Sequence record: KF766125
Strand: one strand, 5' to 3'
DNA: 60,875 nt
DNA from: Shigella phage 75/02 Stx
A program made the translations under genes and the position numbers. The notes under the pieces were generated by a model. The model was not told the DNA's origin. It saw nothing but the letters and a program-made list of their open reading frames with translations, and did no database searches. Position 1 is the stretch's first letter; each line of letters opens with the position of its first letter. Shown here one piece after another: positions 11,362-17,052 of the stretch.

Positions 11362-12102
11362 ATGAAAAACATTTCGACAGGAGGGATTCTTGAACGGGTG
11401 CGCCGTCTGGTACCACCGCACGTTACAGCACCGTTCCGGACGACCGACGAGTGGCTGGAATGGCAACTGGCTGAGGGCCGGAAGCGCAGCGAGGAAGTTA
11501 ACCGCCAGAATCACCAGACGCGGGTTGAAAAAATCCTGAATCGTTCGGGCATCCAGCCGCTTCACAGGAAGTGCTCATTCGGGAACTACCGGGTGCAGAA
11601 CGACGGTCAGCGCCATGCTCTGAGTCAGGCAAAATCCATCGCGGCAGAGCTGCATACCGGCTGCACGAATTTCGTGTTCAGCGGTAAACCTGGCACCGGG
11701 AAAAATCACCTTGCAGCAGCGATTGGTAATCGGCTGATGGCGAAGGGGAGAAGCGTGATTATCGTCACCGTGTCCGATGTCATGAGTGTGTTGCATGACG
11801 GCTACGACAACGGCAAGTCTGGTGAGAAATTTTTACAGGAGCTTTGTGGCGTTGACCTTCTGGTCCTGGATGAAATTGGCATGCAGCGGGATACGCGCAA
11901 CGAGCAGGTCATACTGAACCAGATCGTCGACCGCAGAACGGCATCACTGCGCAGTGTCGGGATGCTGACGAACCTGAATCACGCAGCGATGAGCACACTC
12001 CTCGGCGAGCGGGTGATGGACCGTATGACCATGAACGGTGGTCGTTGGGTGAATTTTAACTGGGAGAGCTGGCGGTCAAACGTTGGGCGTCAGGGTATGT
12101 GA
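11362..12102 (+). CDS. DnaC-like helicase loader (IstB-like AAA+ ATPase)
   Basis: Walker A GKPGTGKNHLAAAIG and Walker B LLVLDEIG. Confidence 0.9.
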   Translation: MKNISTGGILERVRRLVPPHVTAPFRTTDEWLEWQLAEGRKRSEEVNRQNHQTRVEKILNRSGIQPLHRKCSFGNYRVQNDGQRHALSQAKSIAAELHTGCTNFVFSGKPGTGKNHLAAAIGNRLMAKGRSVIIVTVSDVMSVLHDGYDNGKSGEKFLQELCGVDLLVLDEIGMQRDTRNEQVILNQIVDRRTASLRSVGMLTNLNHAAMSTLLGERVMDRMTMNGGRWVNFNWESWRSNVGRQGM

Positions 12103-12127: not shown

Positions 12128-12898
12128 ATGGAAACCGTATTGCATGCACTGAAAGCGATGGGTAAAGCCAATTCTGTTGAACTGGCGGCGCGGCTTGATA
12201 TCAGCCGTGAAGAAGTTCTCAACGAACTGTGGGAACTCAAAAAAAATGGTGTTGTTGATAAAACGGGTCACACCTGGTTTCTGGCTGTCGAAGGTGAATC
12301 CGGGGTAACCGAAGGGCAGGCACTACAATCTGAAGCGCCGGATGTGGTAACCGAAGAGGTCGCTCCAAAAGTTAGCGCTGACATGATGATTGAGTTTATC
12401 GCTCAGGAGGGGGCTAAAACCTGTGAAGAAATAGCGGGTAAGTTCGGAGTTACCACTCGTAAGGTTGCTTCCACTTTGGCGGTAGTAACAGCAACGGGGC
12501 GCCTGGTGCGCGTGTCTATCAAGGGAAAATTCCGTTATAAAGTGCCTGACGTCGAAAACGGCGATTTGAGCGCGTCATCATCGCAGGATGAGAATATCAC
12601 ACACGAAGCAGAAAACAGCGCGTCAGGCGACGAACTGAATCGCTTTCCGTTGATGTCAGAGGGCACGGCAAAGGCCTGTACAGATGAGTTTATCCGGGAT
12701 GTTCCGTCGTTCACCGAAAAATATGCTGGTGCAGTGACCCTTCCACCTCTACGGGCCGCCAGTCGTGAACTTCGTCGCGCCAAAAAACAGGTCCAGAAGT
12801 GGGAGCGTGTCTGTGCTGCACTACGTGAGCTGAATAAACACCGGGAACTTGTCATGCAGATTACCGATTCATCCAGCAGTATTGCATCGGAAAAGTGA
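12128..12898 (+). CDS. Hypothetical protein, winged-helix-like N-terminus
   Basis: 256-aa ORF after the replication genes; acidic central region. Confidence 0.65.
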   Translation: METVLHALKAMGKANSVELAARLDISREEVLNELWELKKNGVVDKTGHTWFLAVEGESGVTEGQALQSEAPDVVTEEVAPKVSADMMIEFIAQEGAKTCEEIAGKFGVTTRKVASTLAVVTATGRLVRVSIKGKFRYKVPDVENGDLSASSSQDENITHEAENSASGDELNRFPLMSEGTAKACTDEFIRDVPSFTEKYAGAVTLPPLRAASRELRRAKKQVQKWERVCAALRELNKHRELVMQITDSSSSIASEK

Positions 12899-13344
12899 TA
12901 ACTGGAGAGCTTATGGCAAAAGTATTTACACCCGAACAGCGGGAAGAACTGAAGGCACGTATTGTGGAGCTCGTGCGCCTGAATGGTCGGGGAACGTTCA
13001 GGCAACTGGCTACTGAAACCGGAGTCAGCAAGACAGCTGTCAGACGTTTGTCCAGAGAACTGGTTGTCAGTGGCGCTATATTCGACTCAGGTTATGGTTT
13101 ATTCCCGTCTGATCAGGCGCGTAAGGACTGGCAAAATGCCCGCAAAAAACTCTCGAGAGCAAAGGCAAAGAAACCGGTTGTTATTGACCCTGGTCTTATC
13201 CGGGCATTACCTGATGGGGAAATCCGGCGCTACGACAGACGCTACAACATAATTTGTCGCGAGTGCCGTAACAGCGAAACGATGCAGCGTGTGCTGGCAT
13301 TCTGGCGGGGGAGTGCAGAGGGATTGATGTTCTCCCCGTCGTGA
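12895..13344 (+). CDS. Hypothetical protein
   Basis: 149-aa ORF translationally coupled to the upstream gene; basic C-terminal half. Confidence 0.55.
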   Translation: MITGELMAKVFTPEQREELKARIVELVRLNGRGTFRQLATETGVSKTAVRRLSRELVVSGAIFDSGYGLFPSDQARKDWQNARKKLSRAKAKKPVVIDPGLIRALPDGEIRRYDRRYNIICRECRNSETMQRVLAFWRGSAEGLMFSPS

Positions 13345-13376
13345 ATGACGGGGGCTTACGTGTTCAGAAAAGTGAT

Positions 13377-14051
13377 TCATATAGAGGCTGAATCTGATCT
13401 TTTTTGTTCACGTCTGGCTGCCACCATTGCAGGCAGAGTGAAGGCGTAGACTAAAAACATTTCGGTAAAACTCAGGATCTGGCTTGCCTCAATTGGTGTG
13501 AAAACTTCATCTGTATGAACTGCTTTATTGGCATCAATTCGTACAATATGAGCCCATTCCTTCATCTGTTCAGTGATCAGCCCTTTTTTGTAAATCATCT
13601 GAATACGTTGCGACAGCGATTCTTTTCCTGCTTCATCGCCGAGCAGTTTTTTCGTGGAGATATCGAGGACTCTGCGACAAAGAATTACCACTGTGTCGTA
13701 CCGCCTCCTCTGTAAATCCTCTTTTGCCTCAACAAAAGTACGGTCTGCAACCGGGGGCGTATATTCTGGTGCGGTAATTTTTTTGACCGCAGGATAGATC
13801 TTGCGGAAACGGTACTGGCTATTTCCTGAAATCAGAATATCGAGGTCTTTTTTCTGGCTTTCCGCCATGGGGCCGTGATAGTGGTCTGATGGGATTTCAA
13901 CAATAGCAACACCTCCTCGATGACAACTTCTGCATACAAAAGCGACGTTAAAAAGAGGTGTTTTTTCAATTTGTTTTTCGGCAAATGCCTCAATAACAGC
14001 TCGCTCTTTTAAACAGTGTGGGCATGTAATGTCAAAGGAGACTAAACTCAT
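13377..14051 (-). CDS. Zn-ribbon protein with C-terminal DUF4145-like (HEPN-related) domain
   Basis: Start at ATG 14051 with GAGAGG SD; CPHC...CRSCH; C-terminal pattern LCRRVLDIS...WAHIVRIDANKAVH...FTEMFLVYAFTLP recalled as DUF4145-like. Confidence 0.7.
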   Translation of the reverse strand: MSLVSFDITCPHCLKERAVIEAFAEKQIEKTPLFNVAFVCRSCHRGGVAIVEIPSDHYHGPMAESQKKDLDILISGNSQYRFRKIYPAVKKITAPEYTPPVADRTFVEAKEDLQRRRYDTVVILCRRVLDISTKKLLGDEAGKESLSQRIQMIYKKGLITEQMKEWAHIVRIDANKAVHTDEVFTPIEASQILSFTEMFLVYAFTLPAMVAARREQKRSDSASI

Positions 14052-14295
14052 GGATATTCCTCTCGAAATTAAAGAAATTAACGAAATCATTGAGGTTACT
14101 GATCGCCCCGAGTTTACCCTCATGCGTCGTTATGAAACAGGAACCGACGAACAAAAATACATCATGGTTGCAGCATTGGCTGTGATGGCGATAGAAAGGG
14201 AGCGGAGGGAAAAGGACGTAATGGTTATTCCGGCGAGAAATGATTCACCGGATTTGAGATGGCAGGATCCGGAGTGGGATGTGGCAATCCGGTGA
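14050..14295 (+). CDS. Hypothetical small ORF, possibly spurious
   Basis: AAGGAG SD 9 nt upstream of ATG 14050, but the start codon overlaps the divergent DUF4145-like start (CATG) and lies antisense in the gap of a minus-strand operon. Confidence 0.2.
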   Translation: MDIPLEIKEINEIIEVTDRPEFTLMRRYETGTDEQKYIMVAALAVMAIERERREKDVMVIPARNDSPDLRWQDPEWDVAIR

Positions 14296-14349
14296 TTGAT
14301 ATTTCTCTGGGGTAAAGCGCCGCCAGAATGACGGCGCGGTAGTGGAGAG

Positions 14350-14658
14350 TTAAACGAAGCGGATCTGGAGTTTTTTCCCTGTAGCACGGGCGAATTTTTT
14401 CAGTGTGGCAAATGATGGGCCGCTTATACCTGATGCAAGATTGCTTTCCATTCTGGTGATCGCAGTCGCTTTTGTTCCCATACGTTCAGCAACTTCAGCC
14501 TGGGTTAAGCCTGCTTCTTTTCGTGCTGCCAGCATTTCATCAAGTAGTGCGAATTCGTCGGCGATGGCGTCGTATTCTGCTTTGAAAGCCGGATCCTCCA
14601 TCCATTTGGCTGCCATTTCGTCGTGTGTCATGGTAGGTGTAATGCGTTTACCAGTCAT
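14350..14658 (-). CDS. HigA-like HTH (XRE-family) antitoxin
   Basis: 102 aa; HTH segment GLTQAEVAERMGTKATAITRMES; overlaps the upstream toxin gene by 11 nt. Confidence 0.8.
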   Translation of the reverse strand: MTGKRITPTMTHDEMAAKWMEDPAFKAEYDAIADEFALLDEMLAARKEAGLTQAEVAERMGTKATAITRMESNLASGISGPSFATLKKFARATGKKLQIRFV

Positions 14659-14977
14659 GCTTAACCTCCTTCATTCTGGCTTCAGCTTTTTTGCGTTCGG
14701 CTGGCGGTGTTTTCTGCGTTTTCTTAATGAAACTATGCAGCATAATGATGCGTTTCCCTGTCAGAGTGCAGTAAAAAACACGTGCAATCCCATCGTTGCC
14801 TTTAATTCTGAGTTCGAAAAGCCCATCACCAAAGGCGCTGGTATGAGGTTCTCCGAGATTGCTGCCGTATACCTTCATACGTTCAATGAGATGTTTGTAT
14901 CGGACACGCATACTCAATGGAAGCTGATCGACTTCCAGCCGGACCTCTTCACTGTAGTATTCGATAGTGTAGTTCAT
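14648..14977 (-). CDS. HigB/RelE-ParE-superfamily toxin (gp49-like)
   Basis: Internal-Met start at 14977; motifs GDGLFELRI, ARVFYCT, IMLHSFIKKTQKTP typical of gp49/HigB-like toxins; toxin-first order as in higBA. Confidence 0.8.
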   Translation of the reverse strand: MNYTIEYYSEEVRLEVDQLPLSMRVRYKHLIERMKVYGSNLGEPHTSAFGDGLFELRIKGNDGIARVFYCTLTGKRIIMLHSFIKKTQKTPPAERKKAEARMKEVKHDW

Positions 14978-14988
14978 AGGTATCAACA

Positions 14989-15004
14989 TAACAAATTTGT
15001 TATA
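14989..15004. promoter_or_regulatory. Perfect 16-bp palindrome upstream of the toxin gene (candidate autoregulatory operator)
   Basis: ATAACAAATTTGTTAT, 12 nt upstream of the higB-like start. Confidence 0.45.
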
Positions 15005-15205
15005 TGTATTCAAGGACTGTACTGTGTTGACGACAACACATATCAAGCAGACAGTCATGCTGTTAGATCACGGTTTGCTTGATGGAAGGTTGACAACTCA
15101 TAAGAAATTAAATTTATTAATAAGACTCATTAAATTTTATGTTAGATTTGCAAGATGACAGGAAACAAAATATTAGGAGCAATAAAAAAAACAGGAGCAG
15201 CATTA

Positions 15206-15631
15206 ATGTTTATTATTCTGCTGATCTTTGTAAAGATAATTGCAACTGAGTTCGGTGATAATAAAATTGATGATATTTTATCAAACAAAGAAGATGCAGA
15301 TAAAATTGCCTCATACTTAAAAAATGAACTATCCAAGAAAAAATTCCCTATTAAAGTAGATGATTATACTACATGGATTGCTGCAACCGTAGAAGGAAAT
15401 ACACTTAATCATTACTATAATATTTATGGGATTAATGAAGATATGTCGCCATTTTTTGATGGTGAAGAGATTAAAAACTTAATGAGCCTAGAAATACAAA
15501 AAAAATTAAATTCTGTCGAGTGTAAAATGATGCAGGAGTATAATTATACATTCAAATATCATTATAACATAATAAACACGAAATATAATGACTTAGTTAT
15601 AATTATGACAAAGAGTAATTGTCCACAATGA
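15206..15631 (+). CDS. Hypothetical membrane-anchored protein
   Basis: AGGAG SD before ATG 15206; N-terminal hydrophobic helix MFIILLIFVKIIA; very AT-rich. Confidence 0.5.
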   Translation: MFIILLIFVKIIATEFGDNKIDDILSNKEDADKIASYLKNELSKKKFPIKVDDYTTWIAATVEGNTLNHYYNIYGINEDMSPFFDGEEIKNLMSLEIQKKLNSVECKMMQEYNYTFKYHYNIINTKYNDLVIIMTKSNCPQ

Positions 15632-15642
15632 AGGGGATGCAT

Positions 15643-16314
15643 ATGGATAACTCAAAACTGAAGAAAATGCTTATTGCATCTATTATCGGAAACATACTTT
15701 TAGTTTTTTTAAATATTCAAGTGTTCAACCAAAAACACTCCTCAAACGTCATAGACACACAAAAAAAAGAGGATAAAAGTAAGTGGACTGATATAGAAAA
15801 CATTTATCCTGTGTGTAAGGTTCACAATAATAACACATCTTATAGCGGGCAATTAAAGCCAGAATGGTACTGTTATTGGTTTAATCCAATAACATACAAA
15901 TACACATATTTAGAAAAGACTCTGATAACATCACCCAGTGATGGTGTTTTCTATTTTTCGAACGAGTATACACCAACTATTGAATTACGTCATAAAGCAA
16001 GTGACATAAGTGTTCCTGTTGATATATATGCCAAACAATTATTAGACCGACTGGAACGTGAATCAAATGCTAAAATTTTTCTACCTAAGGAGGCCAAACA
16101 GATAAAAAGTAAAAAGTTGGAAAAATGGACTTCATTTATTACAGTTATTCCCAAAGACAATTCAAAGGATATAGAGACTTTTCTTTTATCTTTCATTAAA
16201 AAGGAAGAGGTTTTATGGACGGTTTTCGTTGAATACCCAAATGATGATAAAAAGTACTGGTACATTGATGAGAAGACATTTGATCTAATAGATAAGATAA
16301 CCAGTACTTTTTGA
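15643..16314 (+). CDS. Hypothetical membrane-anchored protein
   Basis: AAGGGG SD before ATG 15643; N-terminal hydrophobic segment MLIASIIGNILLVFLNI; AT-rich. Confidence 0.5.
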   Translation: MDNSKLKKMLIASIIGNILLVFLNIQVFNQKHSSNVIDTQKKEDKSKWTDIENIYPVCKVHNNNTSYSGQLKPEWYCYWFNPITYKYTYLEKTLITSPSDGVFYFSNEYTPTIELRHKASDISVPVDIYAKQLLDRLERESNAKIFLPKEAKQIKSKKLEKWTSFITVIPKDNSKDIETFLLSFIKKEEVLWTVFVEYPNDDKKYWYIDEKTFDLIDKITSTF

Positions 16315-16333
16315 TGCGACTATCTGGCGGGGA

Positions 16334-16723
16334 TTAAATACTATATGCACCGTATTTATTATCCCCTTTTTCTGACGGGATACAGTACATAACGAACAAT
16401 ATAAAGCCACCAATATACGGGATGCACCAGATAAACAAGTACCAGGCACTTAACCCAATATCATGGAGTCTGCGGACTTTCAATGTAATGGATGGAATAA
16501 TCGTAGCTAATACGTAAACGCAAGGTATATAAAACCCATAACTAATGCCAGTATTATCTAATGTATATCCGATAAAAAAAAGAACTCCCAAGAATATTAA
16601 ATTAAACAGATAATACCACCAGAACTCTCTTCGACTGGCTCGCCCTGAATAATTGAAGTAGTTATTAAAAAGAACATCCGTATACCATGCCAAAGGGGAT
16701 TTTCTCATGCTTTTATACTCCAA
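16334..16723 (-). CDS. DUF805-family inner membrane protein
   Basis: Motifs GRASRREFWWYYLF and RRLHDIGLSAWY typical of DUF805 (YhaH-like); several TM segments. Confidence 0.7.
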   Translation of the reverse strand: MEYKSMRKSPLAWYTDVLFNNYFNYSGRASRREFWWYYLFNLIFLGVLFFIGYTLDNTGISYGFYIPCVYVLATIIPSITLKVRRLHDIGLSAWYLFIWCIPYIGGFILFVMYCIPSEKGDNKYGAYSI

Positions 16724-17052
16724 ACATTAATATTAAATTGATGATTATTAACAACTTAAAACAACGTTAATGTTTTACCTAATAGGGTGTCAACATCTAC
16801 ACAAGGAAATGTTGACACACCACACATTCTGTCGGATACTCTGCGTCAGGTGCTCAAAACACCTTAGCAAGTAGCGGTTACCGCGCCCGACAGACATGCG
16901 GTTTTTTTGTGTCCAGTCTTCTTGGTTTATGACCGGGCGTGCGGCTAATACAATACCAGCAATGGGAATATGCCCGCCGACTACTTGCGGTTTTGAGCGC
17001 CCGGTCACCCTCTCAAAAGGGGTAAATCAAAATATCAAGTAGGACACAAAGC

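Follow-up and report, generated by a model that had tools for sequence, protein, structure and literature searches.

Between a DnaC-like replication gene and ninB, the genome of Shigella phage 75/02 Stx (record KF766125; 60,875 nt, the whole of which is called the window here) carries a minus-strand gene for a zinc-ribbon protein with a DUF4145 domain (13377-14051) and, close to it, a toxin-antitoxin (TA) pair on the same strand. The question raised by this locus is whether the three genes belong to a single defence system or to separate ones. An earlier reading made from the letters of the DNA (the sequence-only reading) had described toxin, antitoxin, a 300-bp gap and the DUF4145-like protein as one minus-strand unit, and held that whether the DUF4145-like protein works with the TA pair or alone cannot be told from sequence. 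The genes of this unit, and a palindrome upstream of the toxin, all lie where that reading put them. The comparative context of the locus in related genomes does bear on the question, however, and indicates that the DUF4145 protein works independently of the TA pair. We consider it probable that the interval consists of two independent modules in a replication-nin 'moron' hotspot of a POCJ13-like Shiga-toxin phage: an RNase resembling RAZR (ring-activated zinc-finger RNase) together with a small partner gene (13377-14295), and a type II TA operon (14314-15013).

A RAZR-like protein in the replication-nin interval

The open reading frame (ORF) at 13377-14051 is present on the minus strand as expected, but its product has 224 amino acids plus stop, and not 225 as first given. 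The protein comprises a Cys4 zinc ribbon (residues ~1-55), a proline-rich linker (~61-99) and a HEPN/DUF4145 domain (~100-224). Its DUF4145-like C-terminus, which the sequence-only reading had already named, is recognised by the Pfam DUF4145 model over residues 118-197 (E 3.8e-9, 36.9 bits against a cut-off of 23.1). The zinc ribbon has the knuckles CPHC (residues 10-13) and CRSC (40-43), the cysteine codons of which lie within 13923-14024 on the minus strand (C10 14022-14024, C13 14013-14015, C40 13932-13934, C43 13923-13925). All four cysteines of this CxxC...CxxC ribbon, which had likewise been noticed before, are invariant in 36 homologues (alignment A1), and the same applies to R171, N175 and H179 and to the linker prolines P87, P95 and P99. 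The family profile has weak matches to RPB9/TFIIS-type zinc ribbons including 1QYP, and the AlphaFold2 (AF2) model, with an overall predicted local distance difference test score (pLDDT) of 89.9, features a four-stranded ribbon at the N-terminus. Structure prediction also supports a HEPN fold in the C-terminal part, in line with matches to the HEPN toxins of HEPN/MNT systems (5yep and 7ae2). The predicted HEPN catalytic motif is R171-x3-N175-x3-H179 (RIDANKAVH, 13515-13541, minus strand). In the HEPN superfamily, the core is alpha-helical and the motif reads R-x4-6-H (Anantharaman et al. 2013, PMC3710099); the dyad R-x7-H found here is one residue beyond this classical spacing and identical in spacing to that of RAZR.

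RAZR is the present name of PD-T7-4, reported from E. coli UMB1727 and Klebsiella variicola (PDB 9Y9C, 9Y6U; Zhang et al., Nature 2026, PMC13017515). It is one protein, with an N-terminal Cys4 zinc ribbon, a conserved linker (residues 66-79) and, at the C-terminus, a DUF4145 domain with HEPN RNase function, in which alanine substitutions of the catalytic residues R146 and H154 abolish defence. RAZR does no harm until a 24-mer forms round ring-shaped phage proteins (portals, an Erf-like recombinase); it then cleaves RNA, cutting single-stranded RNA, and the infection is aborted. Which phages are sensed is determined by the zinc-ribbon domain (PMC13017515).

As query for the comparison, the E. 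coli protein RAZR-Ec was rebuilt from two database fragments, and the resulting numbering agrees with the paper (AGN 68-70, R146, H154). BLASTP aligned the 224-aa protein to it with 27% identity over 109 aa, i.e. half the protein (E 1e-5), from the linker prolines to the R/H dyad. In the linker IYPAVKKITAPEYTPP stands against IIPAAGNVELPNPDMP, so that P87, P95 and P99 align to P66, P74 and P76 of RAZR, and R171 and H179 align to R146 and H154 (RAZR motif ICRIVGNQAVH). An hhalign comparison of the two families gave a probability of 83% and an E of 8.9e-6 over 94 columns. Judged by this similarity, the 224-aa protein is a distant RAZR relative that shares its architecture. The sequence-only reading had expected a DUF4145-like protein, a gp49/RelE-like toxin and an HTH antitoxin, for which Pfam now gives DUF4145, Gp49 and HTH_3, but had missed RAZR/PD-T7-4, which is the closest known system.

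Several observations weigh against a close relationship with RAZR. The PADLOC model for PD-T7-4 matches weakly (E 1.3e-3, 16.2 bits), the family profile reaches the RAZR chain 9y9c_OA with an E of 0.11 only, and a single-sequence phmmer search of the PDB found nothing. The zinc-ribbon domains of the two proteins were not alignable with the data used, because most database RAZR gene calls are without that domain. Finally, residues 174-177 of the catalytic loop have a pLDDT below 50 in the AF2 model. Given this remote similarity (16 bits in PADLOC, E 0.11, unaligned ribbons and a poor loop model), we class the protein as a RAZR-like variant rather than an orthologue of RAZR. Most likely, judging from the analogy, it is a single-protein abortive-infection RNase. 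Many RAZR relatives are annotated as proteins of 146-169 aa without the first zinc knuckle (P0235, P0237).

The family is large: its profile matches 3321 cluster representatives at E <= 0.001 and 209 at E <= 1e-30, and among the matches listed the members mostly have ~210-230 aa and are covered over almost their full length. Its current label, in PHROGs (PHROG 1305) as well as in RefSeq, is 'DNA binding protein'. A second RNase allele is found in E. coli (locus L004, 6001-6675), with 70% identity to 13377-14051. Its divergence is focused in the linker plus the N-terminal half of the HEPN domain (~50%) and in the zinc ribbon (75%), with the C-terminal 38 residues being 97% and the adjoining small gene 96% identical. 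This pattern points to allele replacement or diversifying selection within the RNase gene.

A small gene interlocked with the predicted RNase gene

The supposed 300-bp gap between antitoxin and DUF4145 genes (14052-14349) is 298 bp long and is not empty: it is filled by a conserved plus-strand gene of 81 aa (14050-14295; WP_000354190, PHROG 8371). The ATG of this small gene (14050-14052) overlaps the ATG of the DUF4145 gene (14051-14049) in a palindromic CATG (14049-14052). The Shine-Dalgarno (SD) sequence of the small gene, AAGGAG (14035-14040, plus strand), is situated inside DUF4145 codons 4-6, and that of the DUF4145 gene, GAGAGG (14059-14064, minus strand), inside small-gene codons 4-5. 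SD-like motifs are common at this junction throughout the family survey, with each gene's ribosome-binding site in the first codons of the other; the interlocked CATG presumably places each gene's promoter inside the other gene as well.

The survey covered 109 DUF4145-homologue loci fetched from genomes and viral contigs. The small ORF stands beside 67 of these, in 39 distinct sequences, and the CATG start overlap is present in 38 of the 39. Its range extends from E. coli to Photorhabdus and a Zoogloeaceae genome, in which the DUF4145 protein is just 35% identical, and in tblastn searches small-gene relatives with 35-53% identity directly abut distant DUF4145 homologues. Reciprocally, a profile of the small protein was searched against viral loci, and 52 out of 60 have a ZF-DUF4145 (zinc-finger DUF4145) gene abutting on the opposite strand. 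The cassette of RNase and small gene occurs after replication genes, beside lysis genes and in other positions, and therefore moves as a unit between different places in prophages. As the flanking phage genes are nearly always on the strand of the small gene, the RNase gene has an antisense orientation relative to the phage operon, as is typical of genes expressed in lysogeny.

Among distant homologues of the small gene, changes are much rarer at non-synonymous than at synonymous sites (pN 0.36 versus pS 0.75, dN/dS ~0.29) and third codon positions are free, which identifies it as a real gene under purifying selection; the close E. coli variants have too few substitutions by codon position to decide its coding status. 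The protein has a conserved core of ~56 residues (..DRPEFTLMQRYE..QK..ALIGKLIEQDR), and AF2 predicts helices at residues 5-16, 20-30 and 33-57, i.e. a core of residues ~1-57 followed by a disordered tail. Searches with the small protein gave no Pfam, PDB or informative fold match, and the text of the RAZR paper, as searched, mentions no accessory or partner gene (PMC13017515). With no Pfam family, a PHROG without function and no mention in the searched RAZR text, the interlocked small gene appears to be undescribed.

There is also evidence that counts against a firm tie between the two genes. Two solo DUF4145 clades and the canonical RAZR loci examined are without the small gene. Conversely, the remaining 8 of the 60 viral loci are E. 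coli phages in which the small gene is kept, DUF4145 is gone and unrelated ORFs occupy the slot. Moreover, next to the RNase allele of only 70% identity the small gene has kept 96%. These solo clades, the eight orphan small genes and the constancy beside a diverged allele imply that the small gene is not an obligate partner. A consensus scan detected no promoter for the DUF4145 gene, and third-codon-position conservation disclosed no convincing embedded promoter-like element in the small gene beyond the SD region.

In the eight E. coli-type viral contigs without DUF4145, two ORFs occupy its slot: one of 166 aa on the plus strand and a short one on the minus strand (96 aa in L120, 1686-2355; 76 aa in L138, 1687-2355). 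The small gene is kept with an altered N-terminus. A scan of the slot ORFs of L120 returned no Pfam match.

Possible roles of the small gene

By analogy with RAZR, the lysogen would produce the RNase in the form of an oligomer without activity. The variable zinc-ribbon domain of the RNase would bind a multimeric protein of a superinfecting phage, and this binding would put the HEPN sites into an active configuration, so that non-specific RNA cutting stops translation and the infection aborts. Such a sensor is awkward for the element that carries it: since RAZR-type proteins are triggered by ring assemblies, a prophage with one must silence it when making its own portal. In the present phage the portal is probably the 714-aa product of 30703-32847, to judge by size and gene order. 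The authors of the RAZR study argue that the host escapes auto-immunity for want of large rings (PMC13017515). A prophage does not share this protection. The RAZR mechanism thus raises the question of how a phage carries a ring-protein sensor through its own lytic growth, and the start-interlocked small gene is a concrete, testable candidate answer. Being on the strand of the phage operon, the small protein might be made in lytic growth, when read-through would also run antisense across the RNase gene; there it could help to switch off or regulate the RNase, such that the phage's own ring proteins are no trigger. These last steps are speculative. We propose tentatively, and at a probability that we hold to be rather low, that with the 81-aa gene the phage encodes an off-switch for the RAZR-like RNase it carries itself, the three-helix protein neutralising the RNase already made.

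Alternatively, the small protein might bind DNA at the shared CATG and there regulate transcription of the RNase gene or of the hotspot, and the RNase would then work alone, exactly like RAZR. Small divergent regulators are common beside defence genes, the core predicted by AF2 is a three-helix bundle, and the small gene stays constant while both adjoining slots vary. A resemblance to the RFX1 winged-helix domain is faint and non-significant (E 1.1). We regard a regulator of this kind as unlikely.

A further explanation takes the HEPN RNase to be constitutively toxic and the small protein to be its inhibitor, in the manner of a classical antitoxin; degradation or titration of the small protein during infection would release the RNase. 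The two genes would then constitute a toxin-antitoxin-like module and differ in this from RAZR. HEPN toxins are often paired with a neutraliser of their own, for instance MNT (as in the systems matched here, 5yep and 7ae2), the two genes are tightly linked with interlocked start codons, and the disordered tail of the small protein is of a kind found in many antitoxins. However, the genes are divergent and not co-transcribed, which fits poorly with stoichiometric co-expression, and the small gene is missing from two prophage clades and from the canonical RAZR loci. RAZR alone is not toxic when overproduced (PMC13017515), and the small gene is hardly altered where the RNase allele differs by 30%. 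We therefore judge a classical antitoxin to be quite unlikely. By sequence alone, neither it nor the regulator is separable from the off-switch that we propose.

The toxin-antitoxin operon

The Pfam family Gp49 is named after gp49 of phage N15, which is paired with gp48. The toxin gene of the present locus (14648-14977, minus strand, 109 aa) encodes a Gp49/HigB-type member of the RelE/ParE superfamily: Pfam Gp49 is matched with E 1.8e-25 over profile positions 3-90 of 90, PHROG 2523 is matched end to end, and the closest solved relative is HigB of S. pneumoniae (PDB 6AF3, E 8.7e-6). The antitoxin gene (14350-14658, minus strand, 102 aa) has an HTH_3 domain (E 3.4e-11) at C-terminal residues 44-98, preceded by an N-terminal extension, and matches PHROG 1373 with E 1e-36. 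The two genes overlap by 11 nt with the toxin first. The gp49/RelE-like toxin, the helix-turn-helix (HTH) antitoxin and the overlap of their genes, all described in the sequence-only reading, are thereby confirmed. The same 330-nt toxin gene with its start at 14977 is called by the Prokaryotic Genome Annotation Pipeline (PGAP) in two E. coli genomes, and these calls, together with the full-length Gp49/PHROG 2523 match, favour the 14977 start over an ATG at 15058 and over an 87-aa RefSeq call. The latter stems from phage POCJ13, where the RefSeq toxin (NC_025434, 14636-14899) is called as 87 aa, not 109 aa, and is probably too short.

The 16-bp palindrome ATAACAAATTTGTTAT (14988-15003), 11 nt upstream of the toxin ATG, is present and conserved, but it is statistically unremarkable: three perfect 16-bp palindromes are observed in the window against 0.9 expected, with at least one in 62% of shuffles, and statistical significance was rejected for this reason. 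The other two, TTTTACGTACGTAAAA and TCGCCAAATTTGGCGA, are at 20394-20409 and 59696-59711. The palindrome owes its credibility to where it lies and to being conserved among diverged relatives, not to statistics. It fills the 17-nt spacer between a putative -35 box TTGAAT (15008-15013) and a putative -10 box TATGTT (14985-14990), which delimit a putative promoter/operator on the minus strand (14985-15013), and in three diverged versions of the operon the palindrome and both hexamers are invariant with variable flanks. The hexamers agree with the consensus in 8/12 positions, and the promoter scanner made no call. As the toxin ATG follows 7 nt past the -10 box and has no SD sequence, the TA mRNA may be leaderless.

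Downstream of the antitoxin stop, the minus strand has a terminator-like hairpin (14314-14337): its GC-rich stem of 9 bp spans 14317-14337, and UUU comes next at 14314-14316. RNA folding gave it -19.1 kcal/mol and a z of -4.4, and 0 of 200 shuffles were as stable. Because the U-tract is short, we only infer termination at this hairpin. The operon would accordingly end at its own hairpin, the antitoxin would regulate its own synthesis through the palindrome in the promoter spacer, and the toxin would be an mRNA-cleaving enzyme of RelE type. By its predicted products and layout, the TA pair is an ordinary type II TA operon.

Independence of the two modules

An identical DUF4145 gene is found beside HigB (PF05015)/HigA in other E. 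coli prophages, and one phage has an orphan HigA plus a Gp49 pair. Sister phages without DUF4145 that have kept the small gene carry TumE/HVO_A0114 or RelE (PF06296)/HTH in the TA slot. Within the 109 loci, these TA pairs are solely beside the E. coli copies (at least 96%, or 70%, identical). The Enterobacter homologues have no TA neighbour and lie beside xis/int or between lysis and terminase genes, and the Gp49 TA pair occurs also at other loci without DUF4145. The varying families in the slot, the solo homologues, the occurrence of the TA pair elsewhere and the hairpin in between lead us to regard the TA pair as a cassette that can be exchanged within a slot of the hotspot. The single unit of the sequence-only reading does not hold, its three genes do not co-occur consistently across relatives, and the question it had declared out of reach is answered by comparative context in favour of independence.

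That toxin, antitoxin and DUF4145 protein nevertheless form one three-gene defence system, in which the TA pair senses and the HEPN domain executes or a common promoter at the palindrome serves all three, is very improbable: the three genes do share the minus strand within 1.7 kb, some RelE-superfamily TA is nearly always upstream of the DUF4145 gene in E. coli phages and the Photorhabdus relative also has an adjoining ParE/HTH pair, but four families hold the TA slot among sister phages, these pairs accompany only the E. coli copies among the 109 loci while solo clades exist, the TA pair is present at other loci, a stable hairpin and a conserved opposite-strand gene separate the units, and RAZR acts as a single protein (PMC13017515).

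The four families recorded in sister E. coli phages for the slot adjoining the small gene are Gp49/HTH_3, HigB (PF05015)/HigA, TumE/HVO_A0114 and RelE (PF06296)/HTH_3. The slot looks like a dedicated hotspot of TA exchange. In the Photorhabdus relative the ParE/HTH pair is on the opposite side of the cassette. The loci behind these observations, the orphan HigA beside the Gp49 pair included, are L003 4544-5127, L120 2797-3445, L138 2797-3860, L016 3489-4440 and L023 6844-7529.

Setting of the locus

The stretch 13300-15150 was used as query and is 99.9% identical to Shigella phage POCJ13 (NC_025434) and to a prophage of E. coli 2012C-4502. The window as a whole is near-identical to POCJ13, an Stx-converting (Shiga-toxin-converting) lambdoid phage of the Sepvirinae, and also matches the prophage of E. 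coli 2012C-4502. The locus is flanked by the replication genes, with the DnaC-like gene (11362-12102) upstream, and by the nin region, with ninB (~17.8 kb) downstream; this is the hotspot position given in the sequence-only reading. A DUF1627 gene is also located upstream, and a DUF977 gene (12895-13344, plus strand) is directly upstream. PHROGs and RefSeq label the latter 'Ren-like exclusion protein', and given this label the hotspot may have another exclusion function at its start.

Beyond the TA operon the window contains an AT-rich island (15000-16800) with a GC content of 27-35%, compared to ~50% in the surroundings. It comprises two plus-strand ORFs without assigned function (15155-15631, 158 aa, PHROG 19308; 15619-16314, 231 aa, PHROG 21161) and a minus-strand gene for a DUF805 membrane protein (16334-16723), and is probably a further cluster of accessory ('moron') genes.

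Rfam and tRNA scans found nothing within 13377-15058. Elsewhere in the window, Rfam detects three copies of sRNA-Xcc1 (16931-17014, plus strand; 59926-60011 and 60463-60551, minus strand) with 71-80 bits each, the gathering score being 53. STnc100 is found at 22220-22418 (plus strand, 141 bits), and AgvB, an anti-GcvB small RNA, at 22414-22473 (minus strand), where it overlaps the end of STnc100 and is barely above threshold with 56.6 bits. Both are downstream of a 318-aa ORF (20906-21862); in the related locus L004, the ORF at the equivalent position has a Pfam RIP domain (Shiga-toxin A type).

Significance

RAZR was described only in 2026, and the predicted RNase reported here adds a RAZR-like variant to it; the TA pair is ordinary. 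Because the family is labelled 'DNA binding protein', is barely detected by the PD-T7-4 model of PADLOC and includes at least 209 clusters, many anti-phage RNases of prophages are probably unannotated, among them RNases of Shiga-toxin phages from clinical E. coli and Shigella. If true, the proposed off-switch would make for a novel class of self-immunity that is built into the phage, and its product would be an anti-RAZR protein of natural origin. The region is furthermore a clean case of exchangeable prophage slots, with an RNase slot that holds two alleles or other cargo and a TA slot that holds four families.

Comparison with known systems

The TA operon resembles HigBA of S. pneumoniae (PDB 6AF3/6AF4) and the Gp49 (PF05973) type in that the toxin gene comes first and the antitoxin gene overlaps it. 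It shares with Gp49/HigB type II systems a RelE-superfamily toxin, an antitoxin with C-terminal HTH_3 domain and a palindrome at the promoter. Nothing notable sets it apart from these apart from its exchangeable prophage slot and possibly a leaderless mRNA.

The predicted RNase differs from the toxins of HEPN-MNT TA systems (Shewanella SO_3166/SO_3165, PDB 5YEP; Aphanizomenon HEPN/MNT, PDB 7AE6) in several respects: it has no MNT nucleotidyltransferase partner, its dyad is R-x7-H instead of R-x4-6-H, and an N-terminal zinc ribbon is fused to the HEPN domain. Another zinc-finger plus HEPN protein, DS-38 (HEP2, WP_001313577, 366 aa), is a validated E. coli defence protein (DefensePredictor, PMC13092281; bioRxiv 10.1101/2025.01.08.631726), of which, according to its authors, the HEPN domain alone aligns with PD-T7-4 (PMC13092281). 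Identity of the 224-aa protein with DS-38 was rejected on length (366 versus 224 aa) and accession.

With RAZR, the 224-aa protein has in common a length of ~210-225 aa, a first zinc knuckle CPHC, a proline-rich linker and a DUF4145/HEPN dyad R-x7-H round a conserved N. In both, the zinc-ribbon domain is among the most variable regions (here together with the linker), and both are borne on mobile elements. On the other hand, the identity across linker and HEPN core is 27%, and the protein scores lower than what the PADLOC model usually detects. The RAZR relatives examined are just downstream of an island integrase and in the same orientation as the integrase, whereas the family of the 224-aa protein resides inside functional lambdoid prophages, antisense to phage operons. 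None of the canonical RAZR loci examined has a start-overlapping divergent small gene, whereas 61% of the family loci possess one.

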